Assembly (NCBI GenBank): GCA_027348385.1
Contig: DAIEPO010000001.1
Coordinates: 1-54,960 of the forward strand
Length of the DNA: 54,960 nucleotides
Direction: 5' to 3'
Source of the DNA: a bacterium
GTDB lineage: Bacteria > Patescibacteriota > Doudnabacteria > UBA920 > VMFF01
Shown: positions 15,576 through 49,619 of the stretch, piece after piece
Numbering within the stretch: the stretch's first letter is position 1
How the letters are laid out: the number at the start of each line of letters is the position of its first letter
Program-made: the position numbers and the translations under genes
The notes under the pieces: generated by a model
Database searches by the model: none
Told to the model about the DNA's origin: nothing
Seen by the model: only the letters and a program-made list of their open reading frames with translations

Positions 15576-15959
15576 TTAGTTAGTTTTTTTGTTGAGGTAA
15601 TTAGAAAGAAAAATCTGTGCAGCTAGTGCATCAATGTTCTTACTGCTTCCGGAAATATTTTCTGCCATCTTGGAACTTAAACGTTCATCTACCAATTCAA
15701 CTTCTAGCCCAGATATCTCTCGAATCTTTTTTTGAAAATCTAAGACCTCTGCTGTTTTTAAGGTTGGCTGACCGCTCATATTCAAAGGGTTTCCTAAAAC
15801 GATCTTTGAAATATTTTTTTCTTTGATTAAATGAGGCAGCTCGGTGATGATCTGCTCTGGGCTCCAGATTTCAAATTCAAAAGCAAACTTTTGCTCTTCA
15901 TCACTTAAAGCTAAGCCAATCCTTTTTTCTCCATAATCAATTGCTAATATTCTAGACAT
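15576..15959 (-). CDS. ruvX: Holliday-junction resolvase-like nuclease YqgF/RuvX
   Basis: 127 aa; ILAIDYGEKRIGLALSD and DERLSS. Confidence 0.88.
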   Translation of the reverse strand: MSRILAIDYGEKRIGLALSDEEQKFAFEFEIWSPEQIITELPHLIKEKNISKIVLGNPLNMSGQPTLKTAEVLDFQKKIREISGLEVELVDERLSSKMAENISGSSKNIDALAAQIFLSNYLNKKTN

Positions 15960-39461: not shown

Positions 39462-40412
39462 TTATACTGTAAAGTATTCTGTGCTATCTTTTTTGTTGTT
39501 AGCAATCTTGTCCATTAAATCATGTAATTCTTCTTCAGAAAAGAATTCAATCATTATCTTTCCACCACGGCCTTTCTTTTCTATCTTTACTTTAGTTCCG
39601 AGTTTGCTTCTAAGTTCATTTTCCCAAGCAAGAGTATTTGGATCAGGACCAGCTGCTTCTAGTCTTGGACGTGCCATCAATTCACGAACCTTTGCTTCAA
39701 CCTGACGCACATTTAATCCTTGATCAACGATCATTTTGTAAAGCGCAAGTTGTCTTTCCATACCAGCAAGTCCTAGTATTGCTCTGGCATGCCCTTCTGA
39801 TATCTTTCCTTCAATGATTGCTCTTTGAATTTCGGCTGGAAGGTTCAACAAACGAACTGTGTTTGCAATTGCAGGTCTTGATTTACCGACTTTTTGAGCA
39901 ACCTTTTCTTGAGTTAAACCAAAGTTATCCATTAACTTCTGGTATGCTTGCGCTTCCTCAATCGGGTTTAATTCCTGTCTTTGAATGTTTTCTATTAAAG
40001 CAACTTCAAGCTTGGTCTGATCTGCCATACCCTGTTTAATAATTACAGGGACCTTTTTTAAACCAGCAAGCTGAGAAGCACGAAATCTTCGCTCACCCAC
40101 GACAAGCTCATAACCTGAAGGAGTTTTGTTAACAACCAAGGGTTGGATGACACCATGTTCTTTGATGGAATCAGCAAGCTCTTGGAGATGCTCTTGGTTA
40201 AAAACCTTTCTTGGTTGAAAAGGGTTTGCAACTATATCTTCTATCGGAACTTCCTGTACTGAGGCGTCTGAATATGAGATACGCTCCGTTAATTCAGGGT
40301 CTTTATGAATTTCAGGCAACGAAAAAGACTGCGTCCCGTTAGACTCCTGATTTTGGGTTGGAGTCGGATTTGCAGCCTGTGTATTTAAATTTTGATTATC
40401 AGTATCAAACAT
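39462..40412 (-). CDS. parB: chromosome-partitioning protein ParB/Spo0J
   Basis: The ORF track (360 aa) reads through tRNA-Leu. The real start is Met45 (MFDTDNQ...). Motifs: NPFQPRK, the GERRFRA box, HTH, and a low-complexity Q/N/T N-terminus. Confidence 0.88.
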   Translation of the reverse strand: MFDTDNQNLNTQAANPTPTQNQESNGTQSFSLPEIHKDPELTERISYSDASVQEVPIEDIVANPFQPRKVFNQEHLQELADSIKEHGVIQPLVVNKTPSGYELVVGERRFRASQLAGLKKVPVIIKQGMADQTKLEVALIENIQRQELNPIEEAQAYQKLMDNFGLTQEKVAQKVGKSRPAIANTVRLLNLPAEIQRAIIEGKISEGHARAILGLAGMERQLALYKMIVDQGLNVRQVEAKVRELMARPRLEAAGPDPNTLAWENELRSKLGTKVKIEKKGRGGKIMIEFFSEEELHDLMDKIANNKKDSTEYFTV

Positions 40413-40430
40413 TTTTGTATTTATATTCTC

Positions 40431-40517
40431 TGGTGCCGGTGGTGGGAGTTGAACCCACATGAGGGTAACCTCACACGATTTTGAGTCGTGCGCGTATGCC
40501 AGTTCCGCCACACCGGC
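40431..40517 (-). tRNA. tRNA-Leu (anticodon CAA), class II long variable arm, CCA encoded
   Basis: Minus strand folds by eye as GCCGGTG-TG-GCG-GAACTGGCATA-CGC-G-CACGA-CTCAAAA-TCGTG-TGAGGTTACCCTCAT-GTGGG-TTCAACT-CCCAC-CACCGGC-A-CCA. Confidence 0.9.
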
Positions 40518-40534
40518 TCGAAAATTACTCCCTG

Positions 40535-40563
40535 ATTTTATCATATTGTTCTGTGTTTGTAAA
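40535..40563 (-). promoter_or_regulatory. sigma70-type promoter for tRNA-Leu/parB
   Basis: Minus strand reads TTTACA (40563-40558), a 17-nt spacer, then TAAAAT (40540-40535). Confidence 0.55.
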
Positions 40564-43459: not shown

Positions 43460-46348
43460 TTAAACCACAAAATTAATTAGCCTTTCAGGCACAAACACTA
43501 TTTTCTTAACCTTCAAAGCTCCTATAGCATTGCGCACGGTTTCAATTTTTGAAGCTTCTTCCTTTACATCTTCCTCTGAAGATCCTCTGGCTATTGCAAG
43601 ATTTCCTCTAAACTTTCCATTAACCTGGATAACATAGGAAGAAATTTGGCTTTCTAATTTTTTAGGATCAAAAGTTGGCCAAGGCTGGGTTGTAACGCTT
43701 CCTTTTCCAGAAAGCATTTTCCAAAACTCTTCGGCAATGTGTGGCGCAAACGGTGCTAGGGTAATAGCAAACTTTTTTAAGGTTTCTTTGGAAATACTTT
43801 CTCCTGAAACTGCATTGATAAATTCCATGAATGAAGAAACTGCGGTATTAAACTTCATTTCCCTAACAGCCTCTTCCACTCTTTTTATAACTCTTGCGAT
43901 TTCAAACAAGACTTTTTCTGAATCCTTGTTTTTTGAAGATACATTATCTGAAACTAAATACCAAGAACGCTGTAAGAAACGATATACACCGACAACACCT
44001 TTTTCGTTCCAAGAAATAGTTTGCTCATGTGGTCCTAGGAATAGCTCAAACATACGCAAGGTATCAGCGCCGTATTGTTTAATAATGGCATCTGGGTTTG
44101 CAACATTTCCTCTTGATTTGGACATTTTTTCACCATCTTCGCCAAGAATAATGCCGTGAGGCTGACGACGTTTGTATGGCTCACTCATTGGTACTAAACC
44201 CTGGTCAAACAAGAACTGATTCCAAAAACGAGAATACAAAAGATGTAAAGTGGTATGTTCCATGCCACCAAAATATATGTCTATTGGCAACCAATACTTT
44301 AAGCTCTTTAAATTAGCAAATTGTTTTTTGTTTTTAGGGTCTGCATATCTTAAGAAGTACCAAGAACTTCCAGCCCATTGTGGCATGGTGTTAGTTTCTC
44401 TTTTTGCACTAGAACCGCATTTTGGACACTTTACATTAACCCAAGAATCAATGGCTGCAAGCGGTGATTCTCCAGTACCAGTTGGTTCATATTTCTTAAC
44501 CTTAGGGAGTTTAACAGGCAGTTCTTTTTCAGGAACAGGAACAGTTCCACAGTCCGGACAATGAATTAAAGGGATTGGTTCGCCCCAATACCTTTGTCTC
44601 GAAAAAACCCAATCACGAAGTTTGTAAGTGACTTTGCTATTTCCAAATTTTTCTGTAATTTTCTTTTTTGCTACTTCAAAATCTAAACCACTAAACTCGC
44701 CCGAATTTTGAAGCTTTCCTTTTTCATTCACAACCATGCGTATTGGTAACTGATATTTTTTTGCAAACTGCTCATCACGAAGGTCATGACTTGGCACAGC
44801 CATGATTGCACCAGTACCATATTGAGGCAAAACATAATCTGCAATCCAAACAGGGATCTCTTCTTTAGTTGCTGGATTAATAACCTTAAGACCTTTAAGC
44901 TCCACCCCTGTTTTTTCTTTATCAGTTGCCAAGCGAATTATTTCATTTTTTTTCTTAGTATCTTCAACATATTGTTCAATTTCATTTTTGTTATCCGATT
45001 TTTTCATTCGACTTTGGACATAAGGGCTCTCTGGTGCTAACACGACATAAGTAGCACCGAAAATAGTTTCTGGTCTTGTCGTAAAAACTTTTATATTTGG
45101 TAAAAGTTCATCAAGCAGCAATGGCTCTTTTTCCCCATTAAAGTGCGGGCTATTAGCAGCAACAATTTTACAATATGCGCCTAGATTGTCTGCTAAAATT
45201 TTCCCGTCTTCATGCGGAACTACAGAATCTGTTGAGTCTGAAATGACCCTGAAATAATCAGACTGTTTTTTTATTTTTCCATAATCAAAACCTTTTTGCA
45301 CAGCTTTTGTAACGGAATGTCGTGGTTTTCCATCTAAAAACTTACCTGTCGCAGGAGTTGCTACCAAAACAACTCCGTGCACTTTTATTCCTCGTTCGAG
45401 TAAACGTAGAGCAACCACCCCACCCATTGAATGACCAACTATTACCGTCCCTTCATCTAAATCGTAATTACTTTGAACATAATTCGCTTGTTCTTCATCG
45501 TCCGGCTCTGGAATACCCGGCATTTGCGGAACTTCCACTTTGAAGCCACGCTTTTCCAATTCTTTTTTTAGCCAGGGGTAAAAATTATTATCAGGTGTGC
45601 TAGCTCTGCCGTGTAAAATTATGAATTTTTTTACTCGTGGATTAACCACGGGGAACTCAATCTCAGCACCCTCACTCCTACCAATCCAATTTTCTTGCTG
45701 TAATTTAACAGCTTCTGGCCAATCTAAGGATTGAAGGCCATCTATTAACTTTTGAGCATACTTTGTAATCCTTAAATACCACTGACGCATTTCTTTCTTT
45801 TCAACAACAGTGCCGCAGCGCTCACACTTTCCATCAACGACTTCTTCATTAGCAAGCCCAGTTTTGTCCTTAGGACACCAATTAATTAAAGATTCTGCTT
45901 CGTATGCCAAGCCTTTTTTAAAAAACTGTAAGAAAATCCACTGGGTCCATTTGTAATAGTTTGGATCTGTGGTATTTACTTCTCTGGACCAATCAAAACT
46001 TAAACCAAGGGAGTTAATCTGTTTTTTGAAGTTCTTAATGTTCTGTTTAGTAGAAACTTCTGGCTGTACGCCCATTTTAATGGCGTAGTTTTCAGCAGGT
46101 AATCCAAAAGCATCCCAACCTAAAGGAAACATTACTTCATTGCCTTGAGCTCTTAAAAACCTTGATGTAACGTCTGCTGCTACGTATGAGCGAAGATGCC
46201 CGGTGTGTAAACCAGCACCGGACGGATATGGAAATTCAACTAAAATATATTTTTTGGGTTTCTTTGAAAAATTCTTTGAATGATAAACCTTTTTCAAAGA
46301 CCAAAATTTCTGCCATTTTTTCTCTATTTTTCCAGGAGTATATTTCAT
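43460..46348 (-). CDS. leuS: leucyl-tRNA synthetase with an inserted RBBP9/YdeN-type alpha/beta serine hydrolase domain
   Basis: 962 aa. Motifs: HIGH (HTGH), KMSKS, the CP1 motifs VFTTRPETIFGATY and GTGAIMAVPSHDLRD, and Zn Cys pairs. About 180 extra residues (aa 238-418) carry GHSMGG, STDSVVP and PHF. Confidence 0.93.
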   Translation of the reverse strand: MKYTPGKIEKKWQKFWSLKKVYHSKNFSKKPKKYILVEFPYPSGAGLHTGHLRSYVAADVTSRFLRAQGNEVMFPLGWDAFGLPAENYAIKMGVQPEVSTKQNIKNFKKQINSLGLSFDWSREVNTTDPNYYKWTQWIFLQFFKKGLAYEAESLINWCPKDKTGLANEEVVDGKCERCGTVVEKKEMRQWYLRITKYAQKLIDGLQSLDWPEAVKLQQENWIGRSEGAEIEFPVVNPRVKKFIILHGRASTPDNNFYPWLKKELEKRGFKVEVPQMPGIPEPDDEEQANYVQSNYDLDEGTVIVGHSMGGVVALRLLERGIKVHGVVLVATPATGKFLDGKPRHSVTKAVQKGFDYGKIKKQSDYFRVISDSTDSVVPHEDGKILADNLGAYCKIVAANSPHFNGEKEPLLLDELLPNIKVFTTRPETIFGATYVVLAPESPYVQSRMKKSDNKNEIEQYVEDTKKKNEIIRLATDKEKTGVELKGLKVINPATKEEIPVWIADYVLPQYGTGAIMAVPSHDLRDEQFAKKYQLPIRMVVNEKGKLQNSGEFSGLDFEVAKKKITEKFGNSKVTYKLRDWVFSRQRYWGEPIPLIHCPDCGTVPVPEKELPVKLPKVKKYEPTGTGESPLAAIDSWVNVKCPKCGSSAKRETNTMPQWAGSSWYFLRYADPKNKKQFANLKSLKYWLPIDIYFGGMEHTTLHLLYSRFWNQFLFDQGLVPMSEPYKRRQPHGIILGEDGEKMSKSRGNVANPDAIIKQYGADTLRMFELFLGPHEQTISWNEKGVVGVYRFLQRSWYLVSDNVSSKNKDSEKVLFEIARVIKRVEEAVREMKFNTAVSSFMEFINAVSGESISKETLKKFAITLAPFAPHIAEEFWKMLSGKGSVTTQPWPTFDPKKLESQISSYVIQVNGKFRGNLAIARGSSEEDVKEEASKIETVRNAIGALKVKKIVFVPERLINFVV

Positions 46349-48191: not shown

Positions 48192-49619
48192 CTATTCTAC
48201 CCTCGGAAAAAGTGGTTCAATTTTAGTTATTGCGTCGCTTTCGAAAGCTTTACGGATTTTTTCAGCAGTTTGGGGCATGAAAGGAGCAATGGACAACCCA
48301 ATGAGTTTAACTTCAGCACCAAGTACTGACAAGACCGCTTCTAACTTTTCTTTGTTAACATCATCTTTTGCTAAATCCCAAGGCTTTGTTTCATCGATAT
48401 ATTGGTTCGCCCAAGCGATTGCTTCCCAAATTCTTGCTAATGCTTCATGGAAACGAAAACCCTCAATCATTTCAACAACGCCCCCTAACTTATCATGCGG
48501 TTCTACAATATTTGGTATTTCACCATGCGAATACTTTTCAATCATGTTAGTCAAACGAGAGACTAAATTACCTAAACCATTGGCTAAATCCCCGTCATAT
48601 CTTGCTTTGATCTTTTCTTCTGAAACATCACCATCTTGTCCAAAAGCAATTTCTCTCATCAAGAAATATCTTACGGCATCACTGCCGTATTTAGTAACCC
48701 AGTCATTTGGATCAATTACATTTCCAATACTCTTACTTATCTTCTGGTTGTTCGCGGTTAAATATCCATGTGCGACAACACCGCCTGGCATTTCAATACC
48801 CGCTGCTAAAAGCAAAGCTGGCCAGATAATACAATGGAATTTGATAATGTCTTTACCAACAACATGCCATTTTGCCGGCCAATATTTTTTAAACAGTTCT
48901 TTATCGCCATGGTATCCAACACCTGATATGTAATTTATTAAAGCATCAACCCAAACATAGACTGTCTGATTTTCATCCCAAGGTAATGCAATGCCCCACT
49001 TAACATTTGGCCTGCTGATGGCAATATCGTTAAATCCTTGGGAAAGCAAACTTAAAACTTCCCTGCGATGTGCTTCTGGCCAAATCTTGAACTCGTCTTT
49101 CTCAATCTTTTCTTTAATCTTCTCTGTAAAATTGGAAACTTTAAAAAACCAGTTTTTTTCTCTGATTAGTTCTGGCTTTGTTTGGTGCTCTGGACAAAGA
49201 CCGTTTACTAAATCTTTTTCAGTTAAAAAAGCTTCGTGTCCAGTACAGTACAAACCAGAATATTCTGCCTCATAGAGGAATCCATTTTCTTTGATCTTCT
49301 TTAAAATATCAGCAACAGTTGCTAAATGATCAGGGTCTGTTGTGCGAATAAAACGGTCAAAAGAAAGATCAAGATTTTTCCAAGCATCTTCAAAATACTT
49401 GTAAGTTTGATCAGCAAAAGCTTGAGGTTCTAAGCCTTGTGCTTTGGCATAGTCTGCTATCTTTGCACCATGTTCGTCTGTACCTGTTAAAAAGAAAACC
49501 TGCTCTGCATTAAAACGGTGCAAACGAGCTAAAACATCAGCAGCCACCTTTTCGTAAGAGTGGCCAATGTGTGGTTTCCCATTTATATAGTCTATGGCTG
49601 TGGTAATGTAATACTTCAT
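48192..49619 (-). CDS. metG: methionyl-tRNA synthetase, short form
   Basis: 475 aa; the HIGH region PHIGHSYE and KISKSIGN (KMSKS). No C-terminal EMAPII-like domain. Confidence 0.93.
   Translation of the reverse strand: MKYYITTAIDYINGKPHIGHSYEKVAADVLARLHRFNAEQVFFLTGTDEHGAKIADYAKAQGLEPQAFADQTYKYFEDAWKNLDLSFDRFIRTTDPDHLATVADILKKIKENGFLYEAEYSGLYCTGHEAFLTEKDLVNGLCPEHQTKPELIREKNWFFKVSNFTEKIKEKIEKDEFKIWPEAHRREVLSLLSQGFNDIAISRPNVKWGIALPWDENQTVYVWVDALINYISGVGYHGDKELFKKYWPAKWHVVGKDIIKFHCIIWPALLLAAGIEMPGGVVAHGYLTANNQKISKSIGNVIDPNDWVTKYGSDAVRYFLMREIAFGQDGDVSEEKIKARYDGDLANGLGNLVSRLTNMIEKYSHGEIPNIVEPHDKLGGVVEMIEGFRFHEALARIWEAIAWANQYIDETKPWDLAKDDVNKEKLEAVLSVLGAEVKLIGLSIAPFMPQTAEKIRKAFESDAITKIEPLFPRVE

Follow-up and report, generated by a model that had tools for sequence, protein, structure and literature searches.

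A hydrolase domain nested in a leucyl-tRNA synthetase

The 54,960-nucleotide (nt) stretch of DNA analysed here, which we call the window, carries on its minus strand a leuS gene whose sequence indicates a functional bacterial-type leucyl-tRNA synthetase (LeuRS) of a candidate phyla radiation (CPR) bacterium (Patescibacteria, Doudnabacteria-like). Embedded in the connective peptide 1 (CP1) editing domain of this synthetase is what appears to be a second enzyme, a serine hydrolase of the YdeN/RBBP9 family (Table 1; amino-acid (aa) numbers refer throughout to the window LeuRS, nt positions to the window). The open reading frame (ORF) runs uninterrupted across all 962 aa, and is apparently the sole leuS of the 55-kb window, in which no explicit search for a second copy was made. 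TIGR00396 (leuS_bact) matches it with 980.7 bits against a cutoff of 548.4, in two stretches that flank the insert, the second placing aa 418-962 on model positions 239-842, and Pfam recognises tRNA-synt_1, the LeuRS editing domain and the anticodon-binding domain. Our comparison set consists of the 120 LeuRS closest to that of the window, and in these G50, H51 and K741-K744 are invariant; the same holds for the CP1 residues T424, T428, G511, G513, D522, R524 and D525 (120/120), whether a given LeuRS has the insert or none. The original prediction held that the synthetase parts were intact, that the frame was continuous and that the insert had a host-like composition, and all of this stands: the HIGH, KMSKS and GTGAIMAVPSHDLRD motifs and both Cys pairs are present, and the GC content of the insert (0.398) is near that of the remainder of the gene (0.376) and of the window (0.385), so that a foreign composition was rejected.

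Table 1. Features of the leuS gene and of the domain nested within it.
Feature	Residues (aa)	Position in window (nt)	Strand	Basis
Complete bacterial-type LeuRS ORF	1-962	43460..46348	-	ORF list; TIGR00396; PF00133/PF13603/PF08264 matches; AlphaFold2 model
N-terminal catalytic part: HIGH, first Zn Cys pairs, WIGRSEGAEIEF strand leading into CP1	1-237	45638..46348	-	96-99% identity to P0106-P0111
HIGH motif (HTGH)	48-51	46196-46207	-	motif position
First Zn Cys pairs		45866-45880, 45812-45826	-	motif position
Recombinant tract (insert and first ~80 CP1 residues), approximate	~226-500	44849..45673	-	breakpoints to about 15 codons
Inserted YdeN/RBBP9-family serine hydrolase domain (181 aa)	238-418	45095..45637	-	PF06821; PDB sequence matches; AlphaFold2 and Foldseek
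HG motif after strand β1, putative oxyanion-hole motif	246-247	45608..45613	-	invariant in 76-sequence family alignment
Nucleophile elbow G-H-S-M-G (Ser307, nt 45428-45430)	305-309	45422..45436	-	alignment with YdeN, RBBP9 and family
Putative catalytic acid, Asp	374	45227..45229	-	PDB and family alignments
Putative catalytic base, His	402	45143..45145	-	invariant in family alignment
CP1 editing domain proper	419-570	44639..45094	-	PF13603, E=8.8e-53 (match over aa 418-567)
Thr-rich CP1 motif FTTRPET	422-428	45065-45085	-	motif position
CP1 motif GTGAIMAVPSHDLRD	511-525	44774-44818	-	motif position
C-terminal catalytic half, anticodon-binding and C-terminal domains		43460..44638	-	Pfam; motifs
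Second Zn knuckle		44546-44563, 44414-44431	-	motif position
KMSKS motif	741-745	44114-44128	-	motif position

Identity and fold of the insert

An RBBP9/YdeN-type insert had been placed between GRSEGAEIEFPVVNP (aa 223-237) and IKVFTTRPETIFGATY (aa 419-434), and recomputation returned identical coordinates. The match to PF06821 (Ser_hydrolase) that had been expected of it was obtained, with E=3.7e-8 and 33.9 bits against a gathering cutoff of 22, over aa 243-405 and profile positions 2-156 of 172. Among the sequences of the PDB, the insert is matched by YdeN of Bacillus subtilis (1uxo) at E=2.3e-13 and by human RBBP9 (2qs9/9fcr) at about 2.5e-10, and the human motifs that had been cited in support of the resemblance (wygwvkkelek, iiighssga, vyaivlvsa and stddpflp) are all reproduced in these alignments.

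The resemblance extends to the residues of the proposed Ser307, Asp374 and His402 triad. Ser307 aligns with the GHS elbow of YdeN and RBBP9, and Asp374 with the second D of 'KDD' in YdeN and of 'STDD' in RBBP9, the latter being, we presume, the catalytic Asp138 of the human enzyme. The PDB alignments stop short of the catalytic His, and His402 was assigned from a family alignment of 76 sequences (the insert and 75 free-standing homologues) in which H246, G247, H306, S307, D374 and H402 form six invariant columns. All three triad residues fall in such columns, and the insert is, as far as its sequence can tell, a YdeN/RBBP9-family serine hydrolase that has kept its triad. Asp371, three residues before Asp374 and kept in 85 of the 86 LeuRS that carry an insert at this site (see below), is an alternative candidate for the acid. 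As for the HG motif, general knowledge of α/β-hydrolases leads us to assume a role in the oxyanion hole.

An AlphaFold2 model of the insert alone has a predicted local distance difference test score (pLDDT) of 90.6 and a predicted template modelling score (pTM) of 0.89, and the domain is predicted to fold independently. Foldseek places this model next to YdeN (1uxo, E=3e-14, TM-scores 0.86/0.83, root-mean-square deviation (rmsd) 2.3 Å) and RBBP9 (TM-scores 0.84-0.86), with an rmsd of 2.3-2.7 Å across YdeN and RBBP9; the next hydrolases follow at E of at least 1.5e-7, a gap of six orders of magnitude. The insert thus shares with YdeN (1UXO) and RBBP9 (2QS9/7OEX/9FCR) the same compact α/β-hydrolase of about 180 aa, with the HG motif, GHS elbow, Asp and His at the same positions. 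However, those proteins are free-standing, whereas the insert is embedded in another enzyme, and identity to them is only 22-28%. The RBBP9 loop with the α-amine-binding Glu108 also aligns poorly, and since the LeuRS inserts conserve F337, D339 and R343 in its place, their substrate specificity may differ from that of RBBP9.

Placement inside CP1

The full-length AlphaFold2 model (pLDDT 90.7, pTM 0.80), in which ten-residue blocks over aa 231-420 have mean pLDDT values of 91-98, superposes on Escherichia coli LeuRS (4aq7) with a TM-score (TMt) of 0.84 and an rmsd of 3.3 Å, and its best PDB matches are LeuRS structures. In this model the outgoing strand (aa 224-234) exits the catalytic body and is joined by a linker of about six residues to the first strand of the hydrolase (aa 241-245); the last hydrolase helix (aa 409-415) is followed by a linker of about two residues and by the return strand (aa 418-423), which terminates at T423-T424, the beginning of the Thr-rich editing motif. 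The hydrolase is therefore modelled in place of the turn, or tip, of the first CP1 β-hairpin, in a nesting of three predicted levels (hydrolase in CP1, CP1 in the Rossmann fold) that looks tight and rigid. Chain length alone would put the attachment point roughly 15-20 Å from the Thr-rich motif.

Solved bacterial LeuRS, such as those of E. coli (4AQ7/4ARC) and Thermus thermophilus (2BTE/1OBC), have the same architecture as the window LeuRS, with HIGH, KMSKS and the Zn modules, and like it contain the Thr-rich and GTG...HD.RD motifs of CP1. In none of them, however, does the first CP1 hairpin contain a further domain, and no matched chain exceeds 876 residues. In a 2026 survey of domain insertions (PMC13114784), PF13603, the LeuRS editing domain, counts as insertion-only and has zero events as a host, whereas in the window LeuRS CP1 itself hosts a hydrolase. 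Few enzymes are as conserved as the aminoacyl-tRNA synthetases, whose editing domains serve as textbook examples of inserted modules; here an editing domain is in turn the host of a second, apparently active hydrolase, in an architecture that is absent from the solved structures and from the survey, yet common in a major uncultivated bacterial radiation. Both parts belong to known families (LeuRS and PF06821), and it is their combination that seems to be undescribed.

Distribution and conservation of the insert

In the interval bounded by the equivalents of aa 230 and 422, 86 of the 120 closest LeuRS have an insert, of 186-225 residues in all but one, while the remaining 34 have 13-32 residues there. 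Two proteins have an enlarged insert at this site, apparently with two hydrolase domains in tandem: P0212, the exception among the 86, with 372 aa, and P0272, with two separate hydrolase matches. The 86 insert-bearing LeuRS are drawn from NCBI, JGI, ENA and Logan assemblies, and the source names include Candidatus Doudnabacteria, Paceibacterota, Uhrbacteria, Minisyncoccia and Kaiserbacteria, and related architectures come from Parcubacteria and Peregrinibacteria. A search of other CPR LeuRS for the same insertion point, suggested as a check of its spread, thus finds it in several CPR groups. The window's own insert peptides, on the other hand, recovered only a single locus from the genome collection, a Kaiserbacteria LeuRS with 56% identity, such patterns being too specific for a survey. 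The original prediction knew of no described LeuRS of this architecture, and here it was half right: we found no published description of a hydrolase within LeuRS in the full-text literature (the subscription literature could still hold one), but such proteins are not rare, as dozens of them lie in public metagenome and NCBI protein sets, annotated only as 'leucine--tRNA ligase' or 'alpha/beta fold hydrolase'.

This distribution also bears on whether the insert is genuine. The metagenomic origin of the sequence is the one reason to suspect that assembly, binning or gene calling has fused a hydrolase gene into leuS. Against this, the insert is flanked on either side by LeuRS sequence in one unbroken frame, two contigs encode the identical protein, 86 homologues from the four sources of assemblies have an insert at the same site, the loci are syntenic and the composition is host-like. 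We rejected an artefact, which we regard as vanishingly improbable, and the insert can be taken as real, as had been claimed.

The catalytic residues of the insert are strongly conserved. Ser307, Gly309 and His402 are each found in 86/86 insert-bearing LeuRS and His306 in 84/86; position 374 is D in 78 and E in the other 8, and the HG motif has its H in 78/86 and its G in 82/86, in a domain whose identity to the window insert falls to about 37%. Between the inserts of P0106 and P0107, nonsynonymous divergence (dN) is 0.124 and the proportion of synonymous differences (pS) 0.735, with synonymous sites saturated, which yields a dN/dS of about 0.04, comparable to the 0.08 of the neighbouring CP1 in the same pair. 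The insert is thus under purifying selection, and the conserved triad together with this low ratio argues for a working enzyme rather than a decaying passenger.

A different state is seen in P0084 (L001, 4663-5694), which has the same insertion with a deletion of 16 aa, such that an equivalent of KVEVPQMPGIPEPDDE is missing, and a +1 frameshift after its GHSFGG elbow. The contig ends within the hydrolase domain, and this could represent either an assembly error or a decaying insert.

A mosaic allele and turnover of the insert

Comparison with the closest relatives suggests that the insert has moved. P0109-P0111 are LeuRS of 784 aa without the insert, their cores 90-93% identical to that of the window LeuRS and their loci fully syntenic, whilst P0106-P0108 have cores 84-90% identical and inserts only about 50% identical to that of the window. 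Along the protein, identity between the window LeuRS and P0106-P0111 is 96-99% over aa 1-225, falls to 55-58% over aa 420-495 and returns to 89-97% over aa 571-962; the insert itself (aa 238-418) can be compared in P0106-P0108 only, and gives the value of about 50%. Residues 420-495 are not simply fast-evolving, because P0109 and P0106 are 91% identical there. The best matches to the low-identity tract are found elsewhere, in P0115 (70% over the insert and 77% over aa 420-495) and P0132 (68% and 79%), two proteins with no more than 54-72% identity in the core. At the DNA level, the window gene and its syntenic relatives L003 and L005 have an identity of about 0.9, except between codons ~226 and ~500, where the value is 0.5-0.65. 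These comparisons show the window allele to be a mosaic: homologous recombination brought in a tract of about 0.8 kb, comprising the hydrolase and the start of CP1, from a LeuRS that is only distantly related.

Turnover of the insert is also seen on a wider scale. The phylogenies of insert and core are discordant, and a neighbour-joining tree of the core requires at least six changes between presence and absence of the insert, mostly in the window's own clade. As even these 'close' relatives are separated by a dS of about 0.6-1.1, the turnover is one of species or genera and not of strains. The hydrolase module is accordingly accessory and exchangeable, and dispensable for LeuRS as such.

Could it then be a selfish or neutral in-frame passenger, spread by recombination and retained because only a precise deletion would spare the essential gene, with its catalysis irrelevant or a decoration? 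The discordant phylogenies, the repeated loss or gain and the damaged insert of L001 are what one would expect, as is an IS200-like Y1 transposase domain that sits in-frame at the very same site in P0258. Yet all 86 inserts have kept the catalytic Ser and His, with either D or E as the acid, and together with a dN/dS of about 0.04 this speaks for selection on activity. The insert has no domain of the nuclease, transposase or intein (Hint) kind. Its junctions are also unlike those of an intein: it begins with R238 and ends at P417-N418|I419, the wrong residues, and with no Hint or intein family in Pfam this candidate was rejected. Nor are there convincing terminal repeats. The one candidate, an imperfect inverted repeat of 18 nt at the insert boundaries (45081-45098/45617-45634; 78% complementary), was set aside as probably a product of chance, because it is 1 of 12 comparable AT-rich pairs in 1.15 kb. 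We give the idea of a passenger little credence.

The P0258 protein, a LeuRS of Candidatus Parcubacteria, deserves a description of its own. Its transposase domain (PF01797, E=5e-14) occupies aa 269-374, at the CP1-hairpin site, and a hydrolase domain follows downstream at aa 643-825. This single case hints that in-frame mobile DNA can land at the CP1 hairpin.

The same hydrolase at other sites and in other hosts

An exhaustive search with aa 205-440 against 1.84 billion cluster representatives gave 3383 matches at E<=1e-3, 38 of them at E<=1e-30. Mapping of LeuRS segments onto the long matches places the hydrolase at further sites in LeuRS besides that of the window (20 full-length representatives plus fragments): one just ahead of the WIGRSEG strand, one that follows CP1 directly, one in the second Zn knuckle, around the equivalent of aa 595-600 (at least 14 representatives), and one around that of aa 800-817. 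Scans with Pfam, by which guests and hosts were identified, further reveal the same YdeN-like domain inserted in or fused to SecA, TsaD, EngA/Der, UvrB, Adk, a peptidase S51, IleRS, ValRS and AlaRS (P0276, P0290, P0307, P0312, P0319, P0363, P0373, P0263 and P0288), mainly in metagenome-derived proteins that appear to be from CPR bacteria. The proportions among these hosts are biased because the query included LeuRS flanks. Free-standing copies of the hydrolase are common, and in a neighbour-joining tree of about 170 columns, which has no support values, free-standing and hosted hydrolases are interleaved. With this range of hosts, the YdeN-like family is a promiscuous guest, accommodated by CPR bacteria in their large housekeeping proteins.

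The hydrolase is not the only guest. Domains of the NUDIX, GNAT, methyltransferase, HAD and histidine phosphatase types are inserted in the same LeuRS or IleRS proteins; one relative of the window LeuRS has a GNAT domain next to the hydrolase, and the IleRS host has a histidine-phosphatase domain beside its YdeN-like domain. LeuRS has a second hot spot just after CP1, following the position aligned with aa 543 (nt ~44720), where 125-218 extra residues comprise NUDIX (PF00293), methyltransferase (PF13489/PF03848) or HAD (PF13419) domains in 15 proteins (P0124, P0125, P0130, P0132, P0139, P0140, P0142, P0147, P0159, P0162, P0171, P0180, P0184, P0186 and P0218). The window LeuRS has nothing at this second site. 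All 15 also have the hydrolase at the first site (15/86 with it, 0/34 without it; Fisher p=0.006 without phylogenetic correction). Taken together, this looks like a general pattern of guest enzymes in housekeeping proteins, seemingly undescribed as such. Synthetases with guest enzymes are nevertheless already a known kind, because NCBI models an IleRS with an embedded GNAT ('isoleucine--tRNA ligase, N-acetyltransferase domain-containing', NF040702), which is likewise a class I editing synthetase with an extra small-molecule enzyme domain. Guest and site are different in that case, and NF040702 matches the window LeuRS via the synthetase core only (73.5 bits against a cutoff of 1999).

Partnership of the same enzymes is also seen outside the synthetases. 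On L007 (5445-6558) the gene of the free-standing homologue P0005 is separated by only 4 bp from the NUDIX gene upstream of it, and by about 2 kb from a GNAT gene, which echoes the pairs of NUDIX and hydrolase inside LeuRS. Since a free-standing hydrolase adjoins NUDIX with GNAT nearby, the partnership may be independent of LeuRS.

These co-occurring enzymes raise the possibility of detoxification or self-protection. Mosaic alleles are typical of antibiotic-target genes, and GNAT, NUDIX and serine hydrolases are classes of enzyme that inactivate aminoacyl-nucleotide antibiotics. The hydrolase could thus inactivate, directly at the target enzyme, synthetase inhibitors that mimic aminoacyl-adenylates or esters; NUDIX, GNAT and methyltransferase inserts would do likewise, and the patchy, recombining distribution would reflect fluctuating selection. 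The mosaic window allele, the polymorphism in presence and absence within a tight clade and the confinement of second-site inserts to carriers of the first all fit such a scenario. These arguments are purely circumstantial, though, and no such inhibitor is known from these habitats. Synthetase inhibitors would not account for the domain in SecA, UvrB, EngA and Adk, and free-standing copies are common. We therefore hold this scenario to be improbable.

What might the nested hydrolase do?

What is known of the chemistry of this family comes from its human member. As an aminopeptidase, RBBP9 trims aromatic residues from N-termini and requires a free α-amine (PMC8866121). The physiological role of YdeN and RBBP9 is otherwise poorly understood, and the fusions described here are natural clues to it. 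Valacyclovir, for its part, is the L-valyl ester of a nucleoside analogue. By the citation of Shenoy et al. 2020 in PMC7730578 (its reference 5), RBBP9 is a valacyclovir-activating enzyme.

We regard as the leading explanation, with about an even chance of being correct, that LeuRS hosts an autonomous α-aminoacyl hydrolase. The domain would act by itself on α-aminoacyl compounds with a free α-amine, through an RBBP9-like aminopeptidase or amino-acid-esterase chemistry, and LeuRS would mainly provide a permissive, constitutively expressed scaffold. An activity would be added to the polypeptide, with CP1 proofreading neither replaced nor modified. Were the domain to act on aminoacyl-tRNA or aminoacyl-adenylate as well, this would be a bonus that proximity offers, taken opportunistically, rather than the reason for its presence. 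We rank this explanation first because the hosts include proteins unrelated to aminoacylation. With the chemistry of RBBP9, a peptide, an ester, aminoacyl-tRNA, an adenylate or an adenylate mimic are all plausible substrates.

Several points weigh against it. We know of no activity or substrate for any bacterial member of the family, YdeN included, and the proposed chemistry is carried over from human RBBP9, at an identity of only 22-24%. The recurrence of the domain at four or more sites in LeuRS and in IleRS, ValRS and AlaRS could reflect a real functional affinity for synthetases, beyond the mere size and tolerance of these hosts, and the host spectrum on which the ranking draws has the bias of the LeuRS flanks in the query. 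The insertion lies some five residues from the Thr-rich motif, and access to the 3' end of the tRNA is geometrically conceivable. Lastly, an autonomous activity does not explain why small enzymes should be nested inside essential proteins.

It is this proximity to CP1 from which the original prediction derived an extra or alternative proofreading activity. As a second proofreading site, the tethered esterase would hydrolyse mischarged aminoacyl-tRNALeu or misactivated adenylates, in cis or in trans, and so broaden CP1 editing or serve as its backup in amino-acid scavengers, whose pools may be skewed. The chemistry of the RBBP9 family would suit such a role, being directed at α-aminoacyl esters or amides with a free amine (among them, reportedly, an aminoacyl nucleoside ester, going by the citation given above), and the role is consistent with an insertion about five residues upstream of the Thr-rich motif and with a strictly conserved triad. 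Moreover, the domain recurs within LeuRS, at four or more sites, and three further editing synthetases (IleRS, ValRS and AlaRS) have it too, and it is because LeuRS and other editing synthetases have been hit repeatedly that we keep the idea alive. However, the CP1 editing residues are fully conserved, with no sign of compensation (invariant as they are in 120/120 LeuRS, a hydrolase that makes up for a degenerate CP1 was rejected), LeuRS that are 90-93% identical in the core manage without the insert, the domain is equally found in SecA, UvrB, TsaD, EngA and Adk, hosts without an aminoacyl-ester substrate, and unrelated enzymes occupy the same LeuRS hot spots. The argument from adjacency is thereby weakened, and we consider a second proofreading site possible but unlikely.

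Hydrolases that edit aminoacyl-tRNA, free-standing or in cis, include CP1, AlaX, YbaK/ProXp and D-Tyr-tRNA deacylase. If the hydrolase did proofread, it would share with these enzymes the hydrolysis of the A76 aminoacyl ester. To our knowledge none of them has an α/β-hydrolase fold or a Ser-His-Asp triad, and we know of no aminoacyl-tRNA activity shown for any member of PF06821.

A bolder proposal would bring several of these threads together: CPR bacteria would have repeatedly recruited the RBBP9/YdeN-type hydrolase into LeuRS (at least four independent sites), IleRS, ValRS and AlaRS as a second, CP1-independent hydrolytic site that clears mischarged tRNA, misactivated adenylates or adenylate-mimic inhibitors, and would thereby have evolved a new class of quality control or self-protection, based on the α/β-hydrolase fold and spread by recombination. 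This we find rather doubtful. If the hydrolase were indeed a second editing or protection site, its significance would be much greater.

Whichever of these applies, two questions are raised. Can an α/β serine hydrolase act on aminoacyl-tRNA or adenylates? Here the natural alleles without the insert, with 90-93% core identity, offer controls for a comparison of S307A and CP1 variants. And why do CPR bacteria nest hydrolase, NUDIX, GNAT, methyltransferase and phosphatase domains in essential proteins and swap them by recombination?

The leuS locus

The syntenic order around the gene is MetRS, a 203-aa gene, TatD, a small membrane protein, LeuRS, Sua5, SHMT, BacA and ParB. In the window, MetRS (48192-49619, minus strand) and LeuRS belong to one co-directional cluster, with the 203-aa gene, the TatD-like nuclease and the small membrane protein between them. 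This order is kept in L002-L006, save that the 203-aa gene is absent from L005 and L006. No free-standing paralogue of the hydrolase lies near leuS, either in the window or in the insert-less relatives L003 and L004, although only 17-55 kb of each genome were covered, too little to be informative.

A tRNA-Leu(CAA) gene is located at 40431-40517 (minus strand), about 3 kb downstream of leuS and on the same strand. It falls within the first 38 codons of a 360-aa ParB-like ORF (39462-40544), and because of this overlap the true parB start is probably further downstream. In L005 the tRNA-Leu is followed by a 229-aa ORF with a weak LAGLIDADG match; an intron in this tRNA was considered and rejected, because its gene, at 15831-15917, is intact. 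The ParB called in this relative has 316 aa.

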